Origin: Eledone cirrhosa
Taxonomy: Eukaryota
Reading direction: 5' to 3'
Assembly: GCA_964016885.1 (NCBI GenBank)
Contig: OZ024746.1
Location: 76,322,001 to 76,386,000 of the forward strand
Length of the DNA stretch: 64,000 nucleotides
Positions 22,901 through 41,499 of this stretch are shown here, in pieces. The notes under the pieces were generated by a model. It ran no database searches. It had not been told where the DNA came from and saw nothing but the letters and a program-made list of their open reading frames with translations. How positions within the stretch are numbered: the stretch's first letter is position 1; each line of letters begins with the position of its first letter. A program made the position numbers and the translations under genes.

Positions 22901-25900
22901 TTCAAATGTTCAGGTTTGTTACATACACGGATTCTGCCTGAGGATTATAATAAGAGTGCATAAGTGTGTGGAACATTCAGCCAATTACATGCTAATTCAA
23001 CAAGCAGGTAGTTCCATTGATCAATCAACTGAAGGTTCATCATTGAAATTGACTGAGATCTATTTACTATTTTACATTGATGTAGACAAAAAAGACTAGG
23101 GAACATGACCAAATCTTAATTACAAAACATTACTTACTTATTCTGGTTTTCAGCTGGAAGTTCCTGTTAGCTACATCTTGGCATCTGAAAGGTTTTCGTT
23201 TTGAATTGTTTCATGTGTTCTTTTAATTGCATAGACTCACAACCAGATTTACATATGAGATAAGTGAAAGGGTCTCATACGTTAAAGTATAGCTATGAAA
23301 CACATCTTTGTCAGTATTTGGAATATTGTAATTTTATTAAATACATTTCTTTTTTTTAAGTGTCACTTCTGTTTTAAAGGTCGACATGGATCGATGCTGG
23401 ATCTCATTATCATTCTACATCATCATCATCATCATTTAACCTTTTTTTCCTTGCTATCAAAGCCTAAATTCATGTATTCTTACAAGCAGGTACTGGCCCC
23501 AAATGTTCTCTAACCCCTAGTTGCTTTAATCCAGCCTTGCATTGATTTCCTGTATACTAAATATGACTGTTTCATTAGCTCTGTTTAATTTACCTTTTAC
23601 TCCTATTAACTGACACCTCTTATTAAGATAACCCTCTTTATAACTGTTTTTCTTTATTTATCCAACAATATTTTGTTGTTGAAGAATTTAACTGCTCCAA
23701 TTGTGATACTTCATATTTGACAAAAAATTAAACTTTCTTGTTGATAATTCTATTTGCTTCTGTTTCATGACTTATATTTTTCGCTATAAATATATTTTCC
23801 CTTAATTCATTAATTTTTTGGGCAGGTTTTGGTGGTTAAAAATCAATGCCCTTGCAAGTTCTCATTTATGGAGTGAATTGGACAAATTTTCTAGAACTAA
23901 AAAACCACCTATTGGAATAGAGGTAAAGCACACTAATTATTCATTTTTTTGTGAAAGACAAATTAAAAAGCTCTGTTAATATGTATTATACTTCACATCC
24001 TAAAGATAAAGGCATTTTCTTGTATCTTCATAGACATACTTTTTGTTTGTATGTTCCATTTTGGGCAAAATTTCTATGGCTAGATACCCTTCCTAACAAT
24101 ACCCACTTTACAGAGTGTATTGCATGCATTTTATCATGGCGCTAGTACTAGAGAAGTGGTCATGGCATCAACAAGACTAAAGAGCCCTCTTTACTTTACG
24201 TTGGCTCAGTTTGATCACCAGTCTTTATAAGAACAAATAGTTAATTTGCTATATATGTGAAACATATATAGCAAATTGCAATTTATAGTTTAAAAATATG
24301 GAAAACTGCGTATATCTACAAAAATGTAATTTCAAATCTCTTTCTTCATTAACTCTATATTCTAAATAAAGATTATTTTATTTATCCTGTACAGTTGATT
24401 TTGTGATCAATAAATGATTTTTTTTAAATATTATCAGGAGAGATATATATAACCATTTTTGTCACTATAAACACTATAATCTAGTTATCCTAACTTAATG
24501 ATATATCATTAAAAAAGTTTATCATCATCAATCTGAATTGGACGGGTTGTCACAGTCCAAGATTGGATGAGTCAGAGAGACCTCACCTTGTTTGTATATT
24601 CCATGTTTGGTATAGTTTCTATGAGTGGATGCCATTTCTAATGCCAACCTTTTTACAAATTGTATTGGTTGCATTAAAAATTTATATTTTAAAATATTTT
24701 GATAGAAACCATGTTTTTATAGAGTTTTTACCGACTCTTTGTTATTTTTTTTAGATGATTTCATCTAAATTTTTTCCTTCAATTTTGATCAACATTTTTC
24801 TTGTATTTGCTATATTTATTTTCAAATTAATCAGGCCTTTGTCGATGTGTGCATGAAGAACAAAAATCCTGAAGAGGCACGGAAATATATTCCCCGTGTT
24901 CAACCTGAGAATAAAGTCCGATGTTTATTGAAGACAGGGTAAGTAAGGACTTCAACTTTCATCTTAAGGAAATTTATACTGCTATAGTTTTAAAATTTCA
25001 AAAATGATTTGAAACTCGCAAATAATTTATATTGCACTATATTGCAATTAATTAGAAAATGATCGTTTCCTCATTATCATCATTTTTGATAAATAATTTC
25101 TTTTTTTTTACGTTAATGCCTAGATAAATACTTTTTCTAACACCAACCACTTTACATATCTGGAGTGATTATTTTGCAGTGAAACACTGTTTTTTTTTAC
25201 ATTTACATTGGTATGAGTTCTATGTATTGCTTGAGAACATTCCCTACACATGTGCGGCGACTGTCTTTCTCTGTGACTTTTCTTTCAACCTTGTTTTGTT
25301 TTATTCTGCTTGTCCTCTCTCGCCCTCTATTTTTCTTGTTCTGCCGCCTCTCCTCACTTTCTATCTCTTCCTCCCCCTTCTAAAGTCATTACATAGTGGA
25401 TTTGTAAAACAAAATCTATTCTCTAATCGATACTTAAAACATTTGAAATATTAACACAGGGTTTGGATTTTTGTCCATTTCTCAGACATAAAATGGTGGG
25501 GTGCTTATATTTGAGTATATATGGTAGTTGCATAGCAAACTTCTTAACCACATAACCATGCCTACACCTAATTTATTTGACCATATCAATTAACACCACA
25601 GTTAAGCAAAATGTACACTCAGTGAAGTCATCATCATCATAATAATTATTATTATTATAAGTCCGCCGAGATTAACTTTGCCTTTCATCCTTACGGGGTC
25701 GATAAAATAAAGTACCAGTAACGCACTGGGTAATTGCTAGCCTTGTGCCAAAAGTAGAAACAATTATTATAAGTCTGTTTTTTTTTTGTTTCCCATGCCT
25801 CATAGGTTGGATGTGTCTTCTTCTGTATGCCCTTCCTCCATTCAGTGTATTCCATCGTCTTCCTCAGTCTTCCTCTACATAGACTCATATCATATTATTT

Positions 25901-26112
25901 TTTTGTTATATATCTTAAGATTTGATTTAATTTCTTACAAACAATATATTTACTTCTTTCTCTGCAGGCAACTGAAAGAGGCAGCAGAAACTGCTTTTGA
26001 GAACCGCAATGAAGATGAATTAAATATAGTGCTATCTAAATGTAGTACATCTAATCCAAGTTTAATGGAAAAGATTAAAGGATTAAAAGCCCAGTTGTCA
26101 TCTAAGAAGTGA
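110..26112 (+). CDS. VPS16: Vacuolar protein sorting-associated protein 16 (HOPS/CORVET core subunit); 18 exons in the window, 5' exons lie upstream of it
   Basis: Manually spliced exons give one continuous frame with matching intron phases, colinear with metazoan VPS16 (e.g. [87 protein letters not shown]). TGA at 26110-26112. Confidence 0.97.
1335..1457 (+). CDS. VPS16: VPS16 exon ([35 protein letters not shown])
   Basis: tag acceptor, gtaagt donor, 123 nt, phase 0-0. Confidence 0.9.
2107..2162 (+). CDS. VPS16: VPS16 exon ([19 protein letters not shown])
   Basis: polyT-cag acceptor, gtaaat donor, phase 0-2. Confidence 0.88.
3050..3290. repeat. Tandem duplication (2 x about 113 bp) of an abundant interspersed repeat (GGATGCCCTTCCTAACACCAACCAC..TTTACAG motif, probably an RTE/SINE 3' tail)
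   Basis: Near-identical direct units; the motif recurs many times in the window (e.g. 13230, 28640, 38186, 48350, 59250, 63880). Confidence 0.7.
3395..3741 (+). mobile_element. 5'-truncated CR1-group LINE fragment (ORF2 C-terminus plus a single 3'UTR unit)
   Basis: [22 protein letters not shown]; homologous to 35550-36050. Confidence 0.9.
4111..4185 (+). CDS. VPS16: VPS16 exon ([25 protein letters not shown]), followed by a U12 AT-AC donor
   Basis: cag acceptor; followed by ATATCCTTTT. Confidence 0.9.
4186..5650 (+). other. U12-type AT-AC intron of VPS16
   Basis: 5' site ATATCCTTTT; branch site TTCTCCTTAAC at 5631-5641; ends ..GGATTAC; the join TC|C keeps the frame (HIS-YMLDG). Confidence 0.93.
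4245..5110 (+). mobile_element. Degenerate RLE-type (CRE-like) non-LTR retrotransposon fragment inside the AT-AC intron
   Basis: Frameshifted [29 protein letters not shown], zinc-knuckle-like [10 protein letters not shown], and nuclease-like [17 protein letters not shown]. Confidence 0.7.
5651..5745 (+). CDS. VPS16: VPS16 exon ([31 protein letters not shown])
   Basis: AC acceptor, gtaatt donor, conserved LVxExDGVRI motif. Confidence 0.92.
6350..6426 (+). CDS. VPS16: VPS16 exon ([26 protein letters not shown])
   Basis: ctcag acceptor, gtgagt donor, phase 1-0. Confidence 0.92.
6580..6747 (+). repeat. About 85-bp minisatellite, split by the LINE and resuming at 12007-12112
   Basis: Repeated TTGAGGAAGG..GTGATGAATGTTGTGAAGAGAAAT units on both sides of the insertion. 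Confidence 0.75.
7017..9773 (-). CDS. LINE ORF2: APE endonuclease plus reverse transcriptase (the listed start is TTG, not ATG)
   Basis: LNARSL, TETW, GDFN, LDL, SDH (endonuclease); [32 protein letters not shown] (RT); RPHLEF..VWNP and TRGH (CR1-type C-terminus). Confidence 0.95.
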   Translation of the reverse strand: MLSLNARSLCNKIHLFESYVRSIDPDFITVTETWAHSLLCDGVFTITGYNLFRINRRGGGVMVYVRSNFSVIPCVDLNESQEEVFFCDIRMTMSTLLLGVVYRPPNYHQDTQLCDILRVAAKKTATYVFIAGDFNHPEIDWETFRWPQGANDFLELVLDSNWSQVVTSPTRGDNTLDLIFTTTPEVVISCTTEEPLGDSDHAMIIANLALEGSNKNQSHLQSACFDWKRADWNLYCTELQRPNWHEMYNSGDVNSILQSILDSIWIACAASVPRKRKNNHPKSAIWETSAVRLARKERRNAEREYKLHRSDANRKKRNKSSNHLKQVTKKAVLEFEQCIATNPDSNVFWKYVHSKQRPHSPVGPLRNPHTSQITDDPKECAELIAECYASIFTVENQNVPSPPSLTSNSITTMEFTPAMLRRHLKNKRNYASPGLDGVTYLLLKRGGDFLLRQLSFFFQYCLSNGATPEQWKTASVIPLFKKGNRMSPVNYRPVSLTSCMAKLMESCVKETLWNFWSSHSLIRPSQFGFIPNSSCCDQLIEFLEDITRITDSGSWVDVVYLDFAKAFNSVPHKRLMAKLFAMGVRDDLFDWLKSFILSRREVVTVLGQHSSPYEMSSGVPQGSVLGPLLFVAYINDIDANLQNATVLKYADDIKLYLEIKRTDPEIYNSFLQSDLDTMQQWITDWQLKLAVDKCTTMHFGRKNPASTYSLHNTDIKKSSCERDLGITVSNDLHWTKHVSKIVKKAEGVLASLSKTFVSRSPAIYLKLYTAMVRPHLEFASSVWNPYLARNIDLLETVQRRATKRIPSIRHLPYSERLASLGMDSLKLQRLAVDLVNTHKVFNHLANCNPERLFDLHVSNTRGHAYKIRKQHSSHDFRRHFFTLRVAETWNKLPASIVSCRDTASFKTLMLPEIRQNYT
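9830..11227 (-). CDS. LINE ORF1: PHD-like zinc finger, Q/H-rich repeats, coiled coil, probable RRM-like C-terminus
   Basis: CHIC..WVECGTC..VCLQC..FQCLAC; three [19 protein letters not shown] units; [19 protein letters not shown] heptads; [16 protein letters not shown]. Confidence 0.88.
   Translation of the reverse strand: MFTFCVFLRMGRNNKIAMVISIDEICDKTGRCPKIEHCPENHICHICAEPENSFRNRWVECGTCRISVCLQCATGFRRIPGQKKRHHNAMMDGIWEMVQLKSWSFQCLACVPASTNVINVIEKQQQQQKPMTVSSSTTVTEQRQKPMTLASTVIPVGEHQKQQQPMSSTPSTSRHQQLVTVSSPTIPVEEHHHHQQQQQQQPATVSSPAIPVEEHHHHQQQQQQQPATVSSPAIPVEEHHHQQRQQQQQQQQQQQPTSTDFAELQLMISALRREVAGIEASIRVGPHNEGSYRNALLKNLPVPLAGKTEKTAESATHEVIAIGVPEDKADLQAFAASSAKDLGCVPPKGALRLGRPGPKPRLIRLSFSDPAEATLYHLASAKAGRENRITFRTRPGLPPHVRPKLRAAASLNRNSAQDESFSLRDDGQIWRFVKAGETWKRDTSWSECDLPTITGNVKTATTLGN
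12692..12814 (+). CDS. VPS16: VPS16 exon ([36 protein letters not shown])
   Basis: ccag acceptor, gtaggt donor, 123 nt. Confidence 0.94.
13505..13632 (+). CDS. VPS16: VPS16 exon ([28 protein letters not shown]), followed by a U12 GT-AG donor
   Basis: acag acceptor; donor GTATCCTTTT. Confidence 0.94.
13655..13945 (+). repeat. Diverged minisatellite, about 5 units of about 60 bp
   Basis: Recurring GGCATGGGACTTCAGAATGRGG..TATGYTATATA. Confidence 0.75.
15064..15250 (+). mobile_element. tRNA-derived SINE (family A)
   Basis: A-box-like TGGCAGTATTGG, B-box GAGTTCAAATCC, core TTTCATCCTTACGGGGTCGATAAAATAAAG, (ATT) tail; partial copies at 14530-14810. Confidence 0.85.
15332..15476 (+). CDS. VPS16: VPS16 exon ([29 protein letters not shown])
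   Basis: CA|A join keeps the frame; gtacag donor. Confidence 0.94.
15520..15735 (+). mobile_element. tRNA-derived CORE-like SINE (family B), diverged
   Basis: GTGTGGTTAAGAAGTTTGCTT..GTTCAATCCCACTG..CTTGG(A/G)CA(A/G)GTGTC; relatives at 2260, 5485(-), 22740, 45830(-), 48090, 59895. Confidence 0.7.
16720..16854 (+). CDS. VPS16: VPS16 exon ([32 protein letters not shown])
   Basis: tacag acceptor, gtaaag donor, 135 nt. Confidence 0.95.
16875..17001. repeat. (CT)n microsatellite
   Basis: Seen directly. Confidence 0.95.
17664..17772 (+). CDS. VPS16: VPS16 exon ([36 protein letters not shown])
   Basis: tag acceptor, gtaaga donor. Confidence 0.95.
17805..18618. mobile_element. Non-autonomous pogo/Tc1-mariner-type DNA transposon with TA target duplication
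   Basis: TA|CCATATATACTCA..TAAGCTGA at the left end, TCAGCTTA..TGAGTATATATGG|TA at the right end; another right end at about 25460-25524. Confidence 0.8.
19095..19189 (+). CDS. VPS16: VPS16 exon ([22 protein letters not shown])
   Basis: ccag acceptor, gttagt donor, phase 1-0. Confidence 0.92.
19581..19822 (+). repeat. Direct tandem duplication, 2 x about 122 bp
   Basis: TATATTTATGGTTGGGT..GATAACTC..ATGTTTTGGTCTAATTTTT..GTGAAGCA present twice. Confidence 0.85.
19888..19992 (+). CDS. VPS16: VPS16 exon ([26 protein letters not shown])
   Basis: atag acceptor, gtaagt donor, 105 nt. Confidence 0.9.
20010..20402. mobile_element. TTAA-flanked (piggyBac-like) MITE with an internal duplication; relatives at about 1536-1779, 5762-6010 and 21087-21582
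   Basis: TTAACCTTTTCAT..ATCAAACGAGTTAA ends and a shared body TTTCTAATGG..GATTTAGTAA..GGTGTTTGGAACATAA. Confidence 0.6.
20406..20692. mobile_element. hAT-like MITE
   Basis: Ends CCGGGGTCTCTAAAGT.. and ..AATTTGGGGATCCCT; subterminal TTGACCCC/GGGGTCAA inverted motifs. Confidence 0.55.
21259..21443 (-). mobile_element. tRNA-derived SINE (family A), full length, with target-site duplication
   Basis: Flanked by TTTTGGCGATTTAATAAT at 21241-21258 and 21444-21461. Confidence 0.9.
21634..21711 (+). CDS. VPS16: VPS16 exon ([26 protein letters not shown])
   Basis: gcag acceptor, gtaagc donor, 78 nt. Confidence 0.92.
22398..22567 (+). CDS. VPS16: VPS16 exon ([25 protein letters not shown])
   Basis: tactaac branch site and ttcag acceptor, gtaagc donor. 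Confidence 0.94.
23826..23922 (+). CDS. VPS16: VPS16 exon ([28 protein letters not shown])
   Basis: gcag acceptor, gtaaag donor, phase 2-0. Confidence 0.95.
24835..24938 (+). CDS. VPS16: VPS16 exon ([35 protein letters not shown])
   Basis: tcag acceptor, gtaagt donor. Confidence 0.94.
25968..26112 (+). CDS. VPS16: VPS16 last coding exon ([31 protein letters not shown])
   Basis: ctgcag acceptor, TGA stop. Confidence 0.94.
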
Positions 26113-26307
26113 TGTGTCTATAAACTAAACACCATAACACTTTAATCTCTTAGCATATTCCATTCCGAAGCAATTCACACGCAATCAAGAACACAGTTTA
26201 ATTTTGATAAGCCAAATTTTAAAACTTATTTTTGGTTAAATATATTTATCTGATCCTTCTTAAAGGCTATGTATATTCATTTGAAAAAAAATTATATATA
26301 TATATAT

Positions 26308-26587
26308 TATTTAATTACATAATAAACAACACAATATAATTATTCAATTACCAAAGGTTTCAGGAAACTAGACAATCCTTACACAAGCATCCAGCTTGTT
26401 CATCACATGAAATAGATAACTATTTCATCTGATGAACGAGCTGGACGTTTCTGTAAGGATAATCTAGTTTCCTGAAACCTTTGGTAATGGAATAATGATA
26501 TTGTGTTGTTTATTATGTAATTAAATAGCTCTGTACTATACATAGAGCACTCTTCTTTCCTTTACCTTTTCTATGGAAATACTTAAC
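26308..26587 (+). mobile_element. 220-bp palindrome plus tail: Penelope/retrozyme-like remnant in (TA)n, downstream of the VPS16 stop
   Basis: Arms 26308-26415 and 26420-26527 are inverted copies with a 4-nt loop; the right arm contains a hammerhead core. Confidence 0.7.
26421..26494 (+). ncRNA. Type I hammerhead ribozyme motif
   Basis: TATTTCAT-CTGATGA-(stem II GAGCTGGA/TCTAGTTT)-GAAAC-CTTTG-GTA-ATGGAATA; stem I pairs over 8 bp with one G-U. Confidence 0.7.
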
Positions 26588-27165
26588 ATATATATATGTG
26601 TATATATATTTATATATATAATATATGTATATATATAATATATGTATATATATAATATATGTATATATATTATATTATATATATGATATATATTATATAT
26701 ATTATATATATATATATTATATTATATATATATATATTATATTATATATATATATATTATATTATATATATATATATTATATTATATATATATATATTAT
26801 ATTATATATATATATATTATATTATATATATATATATTATATTATATATATATATATTATATTATATATATATATTATATTATTTATATTATATTATATT
26901 ATATATATTATATTATATTATATTATATATATTATATTATATATATTATATTATTATATTATATTATATTATATATATTATATTATATTATATTATATTA
27001 TATTATATTATATTATATATATTATATTATATTATATTATTATATTATATATATTATATTATATATATTATATATATATATATATTTCGTTTCTGACCCT
27101 CCCAAAGCATAACAATATATATATATTATATATGTATATATATATATTATAAATATTTATATGTA
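26588..27165. repeat. (TA)n/(TATTA)n compound microsatellite
   Basis: Seen directly. Confidence 0.95.
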
Positions 27166-27625: not shown

Positions 27626-27832
27626 GTGTGTGTATATATATATATATATACACATGTGTGTGTGTATATATATATATATATATACACACACGTGTATATA
27701 TATATATATATTTATATATATACACACACATGTGTATATGTATATATACATACATACATATATGTATACATATACATACATACATATATGTGCGTGTGTA
27801 TATATATATATATATATTTATAATACACATAT
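27439..27832. repeat. (TA)n/(CA)n/(TG)n compound microsatellite
   Basis: Seen directly. Confidence 0.95.
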
Positions 27833-28908
27833 AGGATTTTGTTTTTGTTCTTAAATCTGTGATAAGTAAAGAGGAATTGTGAGTGAAGTTTTTGATTCAC
27901 TAACTTTGTAAAGTCAAAATTCATCTTCAATAGAAGAGAAACAATTGTATGAATATGACAAATAAATTATATTTCGATTACCTGAAATATTATTTTGTTT
28001 TCAGTGTATGCAAAAAAAAAAAACAACATATTTGTGCACCTTTGCCCTTTTGGTATAGCTTTGTCATGTTCTTGTGGAGACAAAGTTTTACATTATCGTA
28101 ACCCTCTTTTTTTTTCAGTTGACCATCTCAGCTCTATTTTTTTCATCCAGCAAAAGTCAGAAATCCTTCTTTGATTTTGAAACCAAAAAGAATTAATTTT
28201 TTTTCTCTTTCACCAATTGGATATTTTTGTTGACTAATTTATAGAATAAAACTTATTTTATAAGCTGTTTCTTGTTTAATGTGTATGTGTTGAAACTCTG
28301 GTTATGAATTTTATAGTTGATCTGATCAATGTAAAATTAATGTGCAAGTAATGGAGTATCCTACTGACATATGCACCCATACTTTGCTAGCAGGGAAAAT
28401 GGATGTTAAATGATAGATATATATATATATATATATATATCTATCATCATCGTCGTCATCATTTTAACGTCTGCTTTCCCTGCTAGCAAGGGTTGGACAG
28501 GTCTACATAAACCAAGTCAATACTGAATTGGGGCTACTGATCTCCCAGACAGACCAGGGATCTACGTCTTGCTTATGTATGGTCTCACGTTCTATTGAAT
28601 GCATCTTCTCAACTCTTTGTTCGGCAAGCTTTCTACAAATGGATGCCCTTCCTATCACCAACCACTTTACAGCATGTACTAGGTGTGTTTATCGTGTAGA
28701 TTACCAACACTAGGGAGGCTGTCATGTCCTTGACACAACTGAAGAGTCCTCCTGACCCTTTGTTTAGCAAGCTTTCTATGGCTGGATGTTCTTCCTATCA
28801 CCAACCACTTTACTGTATGTACGGGGTGTGTTTATCATGTAAAATTACTAAACACTTGGGAGGCTGTAGTTGGAACACATGTATCATATAATCACTGAAA
28901 GAAAAGCA

Positions 28909-40315: not shown

Positions 40316-41119
40316 TATATAGAATGATTTTAATCTTTTAAAAAGGAATGAATTGTTTTACAACGAGTTCTTTTAATTGTAGTCAAGCAAATAATGTTTA
40401 TATTTGGAATGGTTTCCAACATAAACCTAGCTTGAAGATCAAGGTGACATTCAAAATTCTCCTCGGACTACCTAATATAGTGCTCTGAGATATAGAAAAC
40501 AAGCTTAACTCTTTCATTATCATATTTTAATGAAAGCCATCGCCAGATAAATTCATGTTTACTGACTACATACTAAATATTTCTCCTCAGCCACTGACAA
40601 ATTGAAAATTTTATGAACATAAAGCAATGGAATCTAGATGTATTATTGGGATCCCATTATTTGACTGGTAGAATAAAAGGCAAAAGGAAACTCAGTGAGT
40701 TTTGAACTCATAACAGAAAGAGCTGTAACTAAGTACCAATAGATATTTTATCCAACATGCCAATGGTTCTACTGATCCACTGCCAAAAAATTCAAACATT
40801 GATCTCTTTTTATGAAAGATTTCCATATGTTTCTGGTTAAAGAATTCCCAGGTGTTTGTTTAGAAACAGAACTGAAGCTTCTGTACACCAAACAATAACT
40901 AACAAAGAATTTTAGAGACATGAATAAGTAATCAATAACATGAAAATATATTCATTATATAAAAAGTGGGATGTTTCTATGTATGTGCATATAAATGGGT
41001 ATGTAGGTGTGTATGTATGAGTAGAGATATGTATATACACATGTTTGAAATATGTATAAATTTTGTATGTATGTTTATATGTGTATAGTTGTGTATGCAC
41101 ATGTATATAGATATGTATG

Positions 41120-41154
<35 letters not shown>

Positions 41155-41499
41155 ATAGATGCACATGTGTATGTCTATATGCATGTATACATAAGTGTAT
41201 GTATGTATGATAGGTGTGTATGTACGTGTATATAGATGTATATATATACATGTGAATCAGTGTACATGTGTATATGTGTGTATATACGTGTTTATTCAGA
41301 TGTGTGTGAGTGTATTGCATTCATGGATGTATACATATGATTAGTGGTTTGTTTTCTATCTTCTTGGTGGAACCTAACCCTTATGTACTGTTATCCACAT
41401 CTATGGTGAATGTTGAAAACTGTAATACCACAGTTATTATGAAGCCAAGTTAATGTTCTAGATATATATACTTCTCAAATATATATATACATACATACA

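Follow-up and report, generated by a model that had tools for sequence, protein, structure and literature searches.

Can a hammerhead ribozyme lying in sense orientation past the stop codon of VPS16 in the octopus Eledone cirrhosa cut the mRNA of its host gene? An initial annotation of the locus had described a type I hammerhead paired with its own antisense copy, and had proposed that poly(A) site choice and ADAR unwinding of the hairpin could gate self-cleavage of a long VPS16 3'UTR isoform. We analyzed a 64,000-nt stretch of contig OZ024746.1 (assembly GCA_964016885.1, positions 76,322,001 to 76,386,000 of the forward strand), referred to here as the window; positions are counted from its first letter and features are collected in Table 1. 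The gene was named VPS16 because the Pfam family Vps16_C matched its upstream exons and, weakly, its last exon. Matches above the cut-off were obtained for three upstream exons in the window (three of four matches, the fourth lying on another contig), and the last exon matched the end of the model (positions 279-316) with an E-value of 0.0024, which falls below the cut-off.

Table 1. Features of the VPS16 3' region and of the insertion (window positions)
Feature	Position	Strand	Detail or basis
Last VPS16 coding exon	25969-26112	+	TGA stop at 26110-26112; sequence and Pfam
Left (TA)n target-site microsatellite	26293-26307		Sequence
Inverted, 5'-truncated, tail-less copy of element end	26308-26415	-	C3G core, GUGAUGA at 26406-26400
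AATAAA brought in by inverted arm	26321-26326	+	Pairs with TTTATT 26509-26514 in the hairpin
Direct 5'-truncated 3' end (pLTR) of Hydra-clade Penelope-like element, with tail	26416-26588	+	
Type I hammerhead	26421-26494	+	CUGAUGA 26429-26435, stem II 26436-26473, GAAA 26474-26477, predicted cleavage after A26486
One-sided tail, 61 nt	26528-26588	+	Small hairpins 26528-26548 and 26556-26579
Right (TA)n-rich microsatellite array	26589-27083		Sequence
Distal AATAAA	27961-27966	+	Sequence
Distal AATAAA, then U/GU-rich tract	28245-28250	+	Sequence

The core boxes, the GUA cleavage site, the 8-bp stem I and the 3-bp stem III were all found where the initial annotation had placed them. The boxes read CTGATGA (26429-26435), GAAAC (26474-26478) and GTA (26484-26486) in the DNA. 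Stem I joined TATTTCAT (26421-26428) to ATGGAATA (26487-26494) through seven Watson-Crick pairs and one G-U pair, and stem III was ACC/UUU/GGU. The required core (C3-U4-G5-A6-N7-G8-A9, G12-A13-A14-A15.1 and U16.1-H17) was intact in the right arm; in the left arm the same requirement failed at position 3 (C3G). The G10.1-C11.1 pair that closes stem II was absent, its place being taken by an A-U pair and then a C.C mismatch, and a related sister family was unpaired there. Two inner stem II pairs had been lost in the VPS16 copy (26461, 26462). A search with the Rfam hammerhead models, which the initial annotation had proposed, gave no match at the gathering score over the window, nor at E<=10 over 26100-26620; the Rfam scans otherwise returned only generic hairpin (miRNA) models, below their cut-offs. 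The isolated 74-nt motif folded like its shuffles (z 0.20), and its active fold lay 5.5 kcal/mol above the ensemble. The 5' core box is contained in the palindrome TTCATC-T-GATGAA (26424-26436), which folds into a short competing mini-hairpin, and many inversion junctions of the repeat family, judged by eye, were located at or near it.

The sequence also confirmed the 108-bp hairpin and the GUGAUGA reading of its left arm. The inverted arms (26308-26415 and 26420-26527) were 92% complementary, with nine non-Watson-Crick positions. The two small tail hairpins had a folding z of -2.6, and the repeat family had two end points, one just 5' of the first tail hairpin and the other just 3' of the second. 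At the VPS16 locus the short end was found on the left arm and the long end on the right arm, which gives the one-sided tail. The first tail hairpin was nearly identical in the sister family and, by eye, resembled the 3' end of the published Hydra-2_Amil.

This arrangement is not specific to VPS16; insertion of this family normally yields an inverted arm as a by-product. With the right arm as query against the E. cirrhosa genome (3.0 Gb), 2573 first-look candidates were obtained, and among the 40 that were scored the best arms were 93-96% identical to the query. The exact two-box pattern with fixed spacing occurred 212 times genome-wide and not once in the reversed control, which together with the covariation described below argues that the motif is not a chance occurrence. 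An opposite-strand arm adjoined the copy within 80 nt of its 5' end at 17 of 30 fetched loci; the other 13 had no adjacent inverted arm, arm start points were variable, and a same-strand tandem unit was seen at none of the 30. For a wider sample, 76 distinct copies were drawn from 96 loci as those covering query positions 9-75. Their 3' ends were bimodal, 24 falling at query positions 101-108 and 47 at 160-169 (5 elsewhere). By eye, most fetched copies were bordered by TA/CA tracts. L064:397-565 and L065:8128-8296, opposite copies separated by about 11.6 kb, are both tailed and have diagnostic variants in common; they probably represent the ends of a single insertion that nested elements later broke up.

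Comparison of sequences indicates that the hammerhead is real at the family level. The sister family (1476 candidates) kept the boxes and changed the stems, and covariation was assessed in an alignment of 24 sequences, 14 from the VPS16-locus family and 10 from the sister family. Across these two families 89.8% of stem cells were paired, compared with 26-54% in slid controls. Three two-sided (compensatory) changes separated the families; as only two lineages are compared, the number of independent events is small, and pairs changed on both sides were no more numerous than in shuffles (73 of 500). Stem III was invariant in all 24 sequences. Among the 76 copies, core positions carried 17 substitutions where 47 were expected from base-matched positions (permutation p 0.0025), C3 itself being no more conserved (8 of 76). 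This low core variability would fit selection on the source elements.

Many other type I hammerhead families were encountered in the flanks of fetched loci, examples being L002, L008, L029, L035, L063, L066, L067, L071, L086, L087, L090, L105, L110 and L120. In 29 distinct motifs outside both families, the fourth stem II position was a C.C mismatch in 15 and another pyrimidine mismatch in 8. A C.C mismatch occupied the second stem II position in 43 of 64 motifs of the VPS16-locus and sister families. In both tallies, copies of one family were counted separately. The stem II C.C mismatch may be a conserved tertiary or protein contact.

Longer copies led into coding sequence. At L122, RT and GIY-YIG remnants on one strand continued through an AT-rich, microsatellite-like 3'UTR, within which lies one nested insertion, into the VPS16-locus repeat. 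At L064, an inverted family copy abutted a 5'-truncated ORF 82% identical to that of L122 over 2.2 kb, and L078 had the same order. L118 showed inverted copy, ORF and direct copy for the sister family. RT followed by a C-terminal GIY-YIG was therefore present upstream of the pLTR as broken remnants continuous with the repeat (L122, L064, L078); among the walked and fetched loci no intact ORF of the VPS16-locus family was found, and the copy in the window carries neither RT nor GIY-YIG. Translated frames of L064, L118 and L122 contained the CxCX5C linker, CxxC and CxH, and CCHH was absent, a combination that marks the Hydra clade of Penelope-like elements (PLEs; PMC8557442). This clade inserts into (TA)n and includes Hydra-1_Obim of Octopus bimaculoides (PMC8557442 supplement); the VPS16 locus has (TA)n on both flanks, and by-eye comparison placed the parent RT as a clear relative of Hydra-1_Obim in a different family. 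The link to Penelope-like elements drawn in the initial annotation was thus borne out by the RT/GIY-YIG ORF, the motifs and the anatomy, and now reads as a Hydra-clade pLTR stub.

Two further elements were at first considered possible parents; the different pLTR and hammerhead that each of them carries led to their rejection. One (L063:3474-7370) is a near-complete Hydra-type PLE of another family with two direct pLTRs bearing their own hammerhead; its ORF is frameshifted, with 639 aa open in the second frame, and RWK- and DKT-like N-terminal motifs were seen only in this family, the recovered sequence of the VPS16-locus family not extending to the N-terminus. The other (L061:2590-4560), which lies between copies of the VPS16-locus family, is a decayed PLE of a different type with RT and GIY-YIG remnants and its own hammerhead. 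Pfam found no family in the ORFs of either, and a PDB sequence search gave just weak SET-domain matches (E>=0.047). Within the window, 41099-41251 matched the parent element's low-complexity 3'UTR weakly (70%).

The VPS16 insertion is built like Hydra-clade PLE insertions and, by the features tested, belongs to them. PLE insertions were described by Craig et al. 2021 as showing 5' truncation, an inverted adjacent copy and a one-sided tail (PMC8557442), and Penelope-13_HM carries the same inverted 5' copy (PMC8557442 supplement). The VPS16-locus family shares with the published clade the order of RT and GIY-YIG, the CxCX5C/CxxC/CxH motifs, the (TA)n target, the inverted 5'-truncated copy with its one-sided tail, and a hammerhead near the 3' end that has a 3-bp stem III, a GUA site and a non-G-C stem II base. 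In the Hydra hammerhead table of that supplement, short stem III, frequent GUA sites and a mismatched stem II base recur, and most entries are without G10.1-C11.1. Because the published Hydra hammerheads mismatch at the stem II base, the missing G-C pair is normal for the clade. Unlike Hydra-1_Obim, the VPS16-locus family has a different hammerhead sequence, a longer stem II that spans the 38 nt from one core box to the other and contains a bulge and a C.C mismatch, and a parent with a microsatellite-like 3'UTR of more than 1 kb; the tail is about 61 nt, compared with 30-40 in the published Hydra elements. Two motifs of the VPS16-locus family were not found in the PMC8557442 supplement.

Other hammerhead systems resembled the locus in part. 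Like the minimal hammerheads of metazoan PLEs (Cervera and De la Pena 2014, PMC4209133), the VPS16 motif is of type I with a large helix II and a short helix III, and those hammerheads likewise include dispersed single motifs from truncated elements and close opposite-strand pairs. Unlike them, it is without G10.1-C11.1, there called highly conserved, its loop 3 (UUU) is not palindromic, and its stem I, with 8 bp that can be extended to about 12, exceeds theirs in length. In the Anolis Poseidon element PAc (Frangieh et al. 2024), C3G abolishes cleavage by the hammerhead, and the tail is explained by two internal RT start sites at a stem-loop (PMC11167929). PAc shares two genomic end points that define the tail and AT-rich targets; unlike the VPS16-locus family, it belongs to another clade and its ORF starts within the hammerhead (PMC11167929). 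By analogy, a PAc-type mechanism with two start sites may operate in the VPS16-locus family, and the first tail hairpin is a candidate RT start signal. The hammerhead of mammalian Clec2 genes is also a sense motif downstream of a host stop codon; it is a discontinuous type III motif common to mammals (PMC6155905), whereas the VPS16 motif belongs to a repeat copy that looks recent and is sealed by an antisense arm of its own. A type I hammerhead in a short repeat is likewise found in non-LTR retrozymes (Cervera and de la Pena 2020, PMC7229834), and the VPS16-locus family differs from them in having no tandem 170-400 nt units, an inverted layout and a coding parent. An O. vulgaris repeat paper names Penelope families and makes no mention of hammerheads in the part available (PMC13282606). 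Outside subscription journals, Repbase/Dfam and bioRxiv supplements, no literature was found that deals with the VPS16 locus, with this repeat family, or with a Penelope hammerhead that an antisense arm keeps locked in the 3'UTR of a host gene.

Whether the element is transcribed with VPS16 bears on any effect on the host. All three AATAAA signals claimed for the region were present, and ATTAAA, which the initial annotation had not listed, also occurs at 26520, 27253 and 27422. By eye, no GU-rich element followed the AATAAA at 26321; the one at 28245 looked best and is likely the ancestral poly(A) signal. A 2750-nt contig from run X4 (type not on record) began aligning at 25967, an exon boundary, and its 2380 letters before that point departed from the intron sequence. 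VPS16 is about 840 aa long. The contig looks like spliced mRNA, because 2380 letters approximate the remaining VPS16 coding length. It aligned up to 26279, and a further 57 letters fell over skipped repeat. A second X4 contig, its run type likewise not on record, spanned 27825-28204. The X4 cover, from one study, ended at 28204, 40 nt short of the AATAAA at 28245 and with no loose end; contigs of X1, X3 and X5 continued past this point. The X5 contigs, from a related organism (B), aligned to 26254 and over 27825-28399 at about 90-95% identity, did not span the insertion, and broke at the microsatellites flanking it; among the differences shown, which are all but one, neither distal AATAAA was changed. 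Long-term retention of the insertion is conceivable. No contig bridged the element, the contigs show neither strand nor transcript ends, and no RNA data were listed for 25900-26600. In the runs, alignments to the two arms were dominated by other copies of the repeat, which masks any editing there. A long VPS16 3'UTR containing the hairpin, hinted at by one contig set, is plausible, and the element may well be part of the mature mRNA and could be exposed to selection there.

We then compared the hairpin with the ribozyme fold by a nearest-neighbour energy model, in which helicases, proteins and inosine specifics are ignored and I-U is modelled as G-U or as unpairable. In VPS16-sense RNA the hairpin was predicted to beat the constrained ribozyme fold by about 85 kcal/mol, and by 82-87 kcal/mol in a co-transcriptional model with the 3' end emerging. 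It remained ahead by 63 kcal/mol when all left-arm A were read as G, by 26 kcal/mol when all 46 were made unpairable, and by 35-78 kcal/mol upon random loss of 25-50% of left-arm A pairing. Proximal poly(A) cleavage (modelled 5' ends 26337-26356) would leave the downstream RNA with some 60-80 nt of the blocking arm, and there the hairpin was ahead by 61-73 kcal/mol; the gap fell to 5-7 kcal/mol only with the arm removed to about 26410. The competition between hairpin and ribozyme proposed earlier was therefore upheld in the models, at 26-87 kcal/mol in all states that keep the arm. The proposed gating by ADAR or poly(A) site choice was not supported and is unlikely, since the hairpin wins despite loss of A pairing or proximal cleavage; what stands of that proposal is the long 3'UTR isoform, which is plausible from X4 contigs on either side. 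ADAR acts on both strands of a duplex, and right-arm editing would also hit five core adenosines. No model that kept the blocking arm yielded the accessible active fold needed for a Clec2-like domestication.

The state of this copy was compared with the rest of the family. The left arm differed from the family majority at 7 positions in 108 nt and the right arm at 4 in 169 nt, two of the latter breaking the inner stem II pairs; of these changes, 3 in the left arm and 2 in the right arm fell at CpG sites of the majority. The right arm was among the least diverged (2.4%, fifth of 76), in a set picked by likeness to it, and an intact core was common (58 of 76 copies). Arm-to-arm identity was 91.7%, which lies within the 87-98% spanned by 11 fold-back loci whose arms measure at least 60 nt. 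Relative to the 76 copies and the 11 fold-back loci there was no sign of extra conservation or special upkeep at VPS16, and both arms appear to decay neutrally. Because A-to-G on the VPS16 strand accounted for only 1 of the 11 changes, a hyper-editing fossil was rejected here. A dimeric hammerhead that would include the left arm was also rejected, as that arm is antisense in the same transcript.

We consider it very probable that the locus holds a 280-nt fold-back stub of a Hydra-clade PLE, inserted in (TA)n about 200 nt past the VPS16 stop, whose hammerhead is predicted to be permanently locked by the inverted arm and is therefore unlikely to cut VPS16 mRNA. The family assignment, the number of copies, the anatomy of the insertion and the connection to an RT/GIY-YIG ORF were observed directly. 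From the known Penelope mechanism, the endonuclease would have nicked AT-rich DNA and reverse transcription would have started at either of two stem-loop sites, the two sites giving a tailed copy (end 26588) and an inverted tail-less copy (end 26308), with synthesis of each breaking off a few bases beyond the 5' side of the hammerhead. This motif would have served the parent element, where selection on the core appears visible. In a VPS16-sense transcript the antisense arm would be made first and would zip up the ribozyme as it emerges. Any host effect would likely be passive, through a 108-bp duplex and an extra weak AATAAA in a long 3'UTR.

A passive effect of this kind, in which the duplex is ADAR-edited or masks the proximal AATAAA and thereby shifts VPS16 isoform use or stability, is compatible with the locked stub, and we regard it as possible though rather unlikely. 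The length and 92% complementarity of the duplex, the base pairing of the AATAAA at 26321, the downstream X4 cover and the high ADAR activity of coleoids count in its favour; against it, the arms show no sign of being kept complementary. It is improbable, in our estimate, that the inverted arm is a built-in safety catch, silencing a sense hammerhead that would otherwise cut off the host poly(A) tail which would explain the survival of insertions of this kind in 3'UTRs such as that of VPS16. Once sealed, the duplex may have gone on to become an element that is edited by ADAR and modulates poly(A) site use, and in the boldest form of this reading a helicase or element protein may reopen the duplex and cut the long VPS16 isoform. 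If the catch were real, sense copies in mRNAs would be enriched for fold-back over solo forms.

That the host has adopted the ribozyme as a switch, one that cuts a long VPS16 3'UTR once poly(A) site choice and unwinding by ADAR have released it, seems very unlikely. The sense orientation, the intact core, the distal AATAAA with its GU-rich tract, the spliced-looking X4 contig that reaches the left arm together with the one downstream, and the co-opted Clec2 3'UTR hammerheads of mammals (PMC6155905) speak for it, but the hairpin leads in every modelled state, editing would strike core adenosines as well, two stem II pairs are gone from this copy, and the arrangement recurs at many unrelated loci. 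Moreover, the Anolis PLE hammerhead gave no cleavage without its own protein and no RNA-seq reads end at its site (PMC11167929), and minimal PLE hammerheads are weak in vitro (PMC4209133). A non-autonomous retrozyme, that is, a tandem hammerhead repeat yielding circular RNA, would account for a type I motif in a short non-coding repeat, and retrozymes have been proposed to derive from PLE pLTRs (bioRxiv 10.64898/2026.07.22.740005). With no same-strand tandem units, and with longer copies leading into a coding PLE, this origin is largely refuted by the ORF link and is extremely unlikely. The long inverted repeat in a TA target would also suit a fold-back DNA transposon (MITE) in which a hammerhead-like motif arose by chance; variable arm starts, the loci lacking an adjacent inverted arm, the one-sided tail, covariation, core conservation and the RT ORF link make this almost certainly wrong.

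The locus most likely represents a further insertion from a retroelement clade already described, of little consequence for VPS16. What it contributes is a Hydra-clade family from an octopus whose hammerhead is tied to its ORF, together with a clean setting in which to test whether the inverted arms of Penelope hammerheads neutralise them in host transcripts. A demonstration of cleavage or regulated editing would make it a rare case of an invertebrate retroelement ribozyme adopted for mRNA control.
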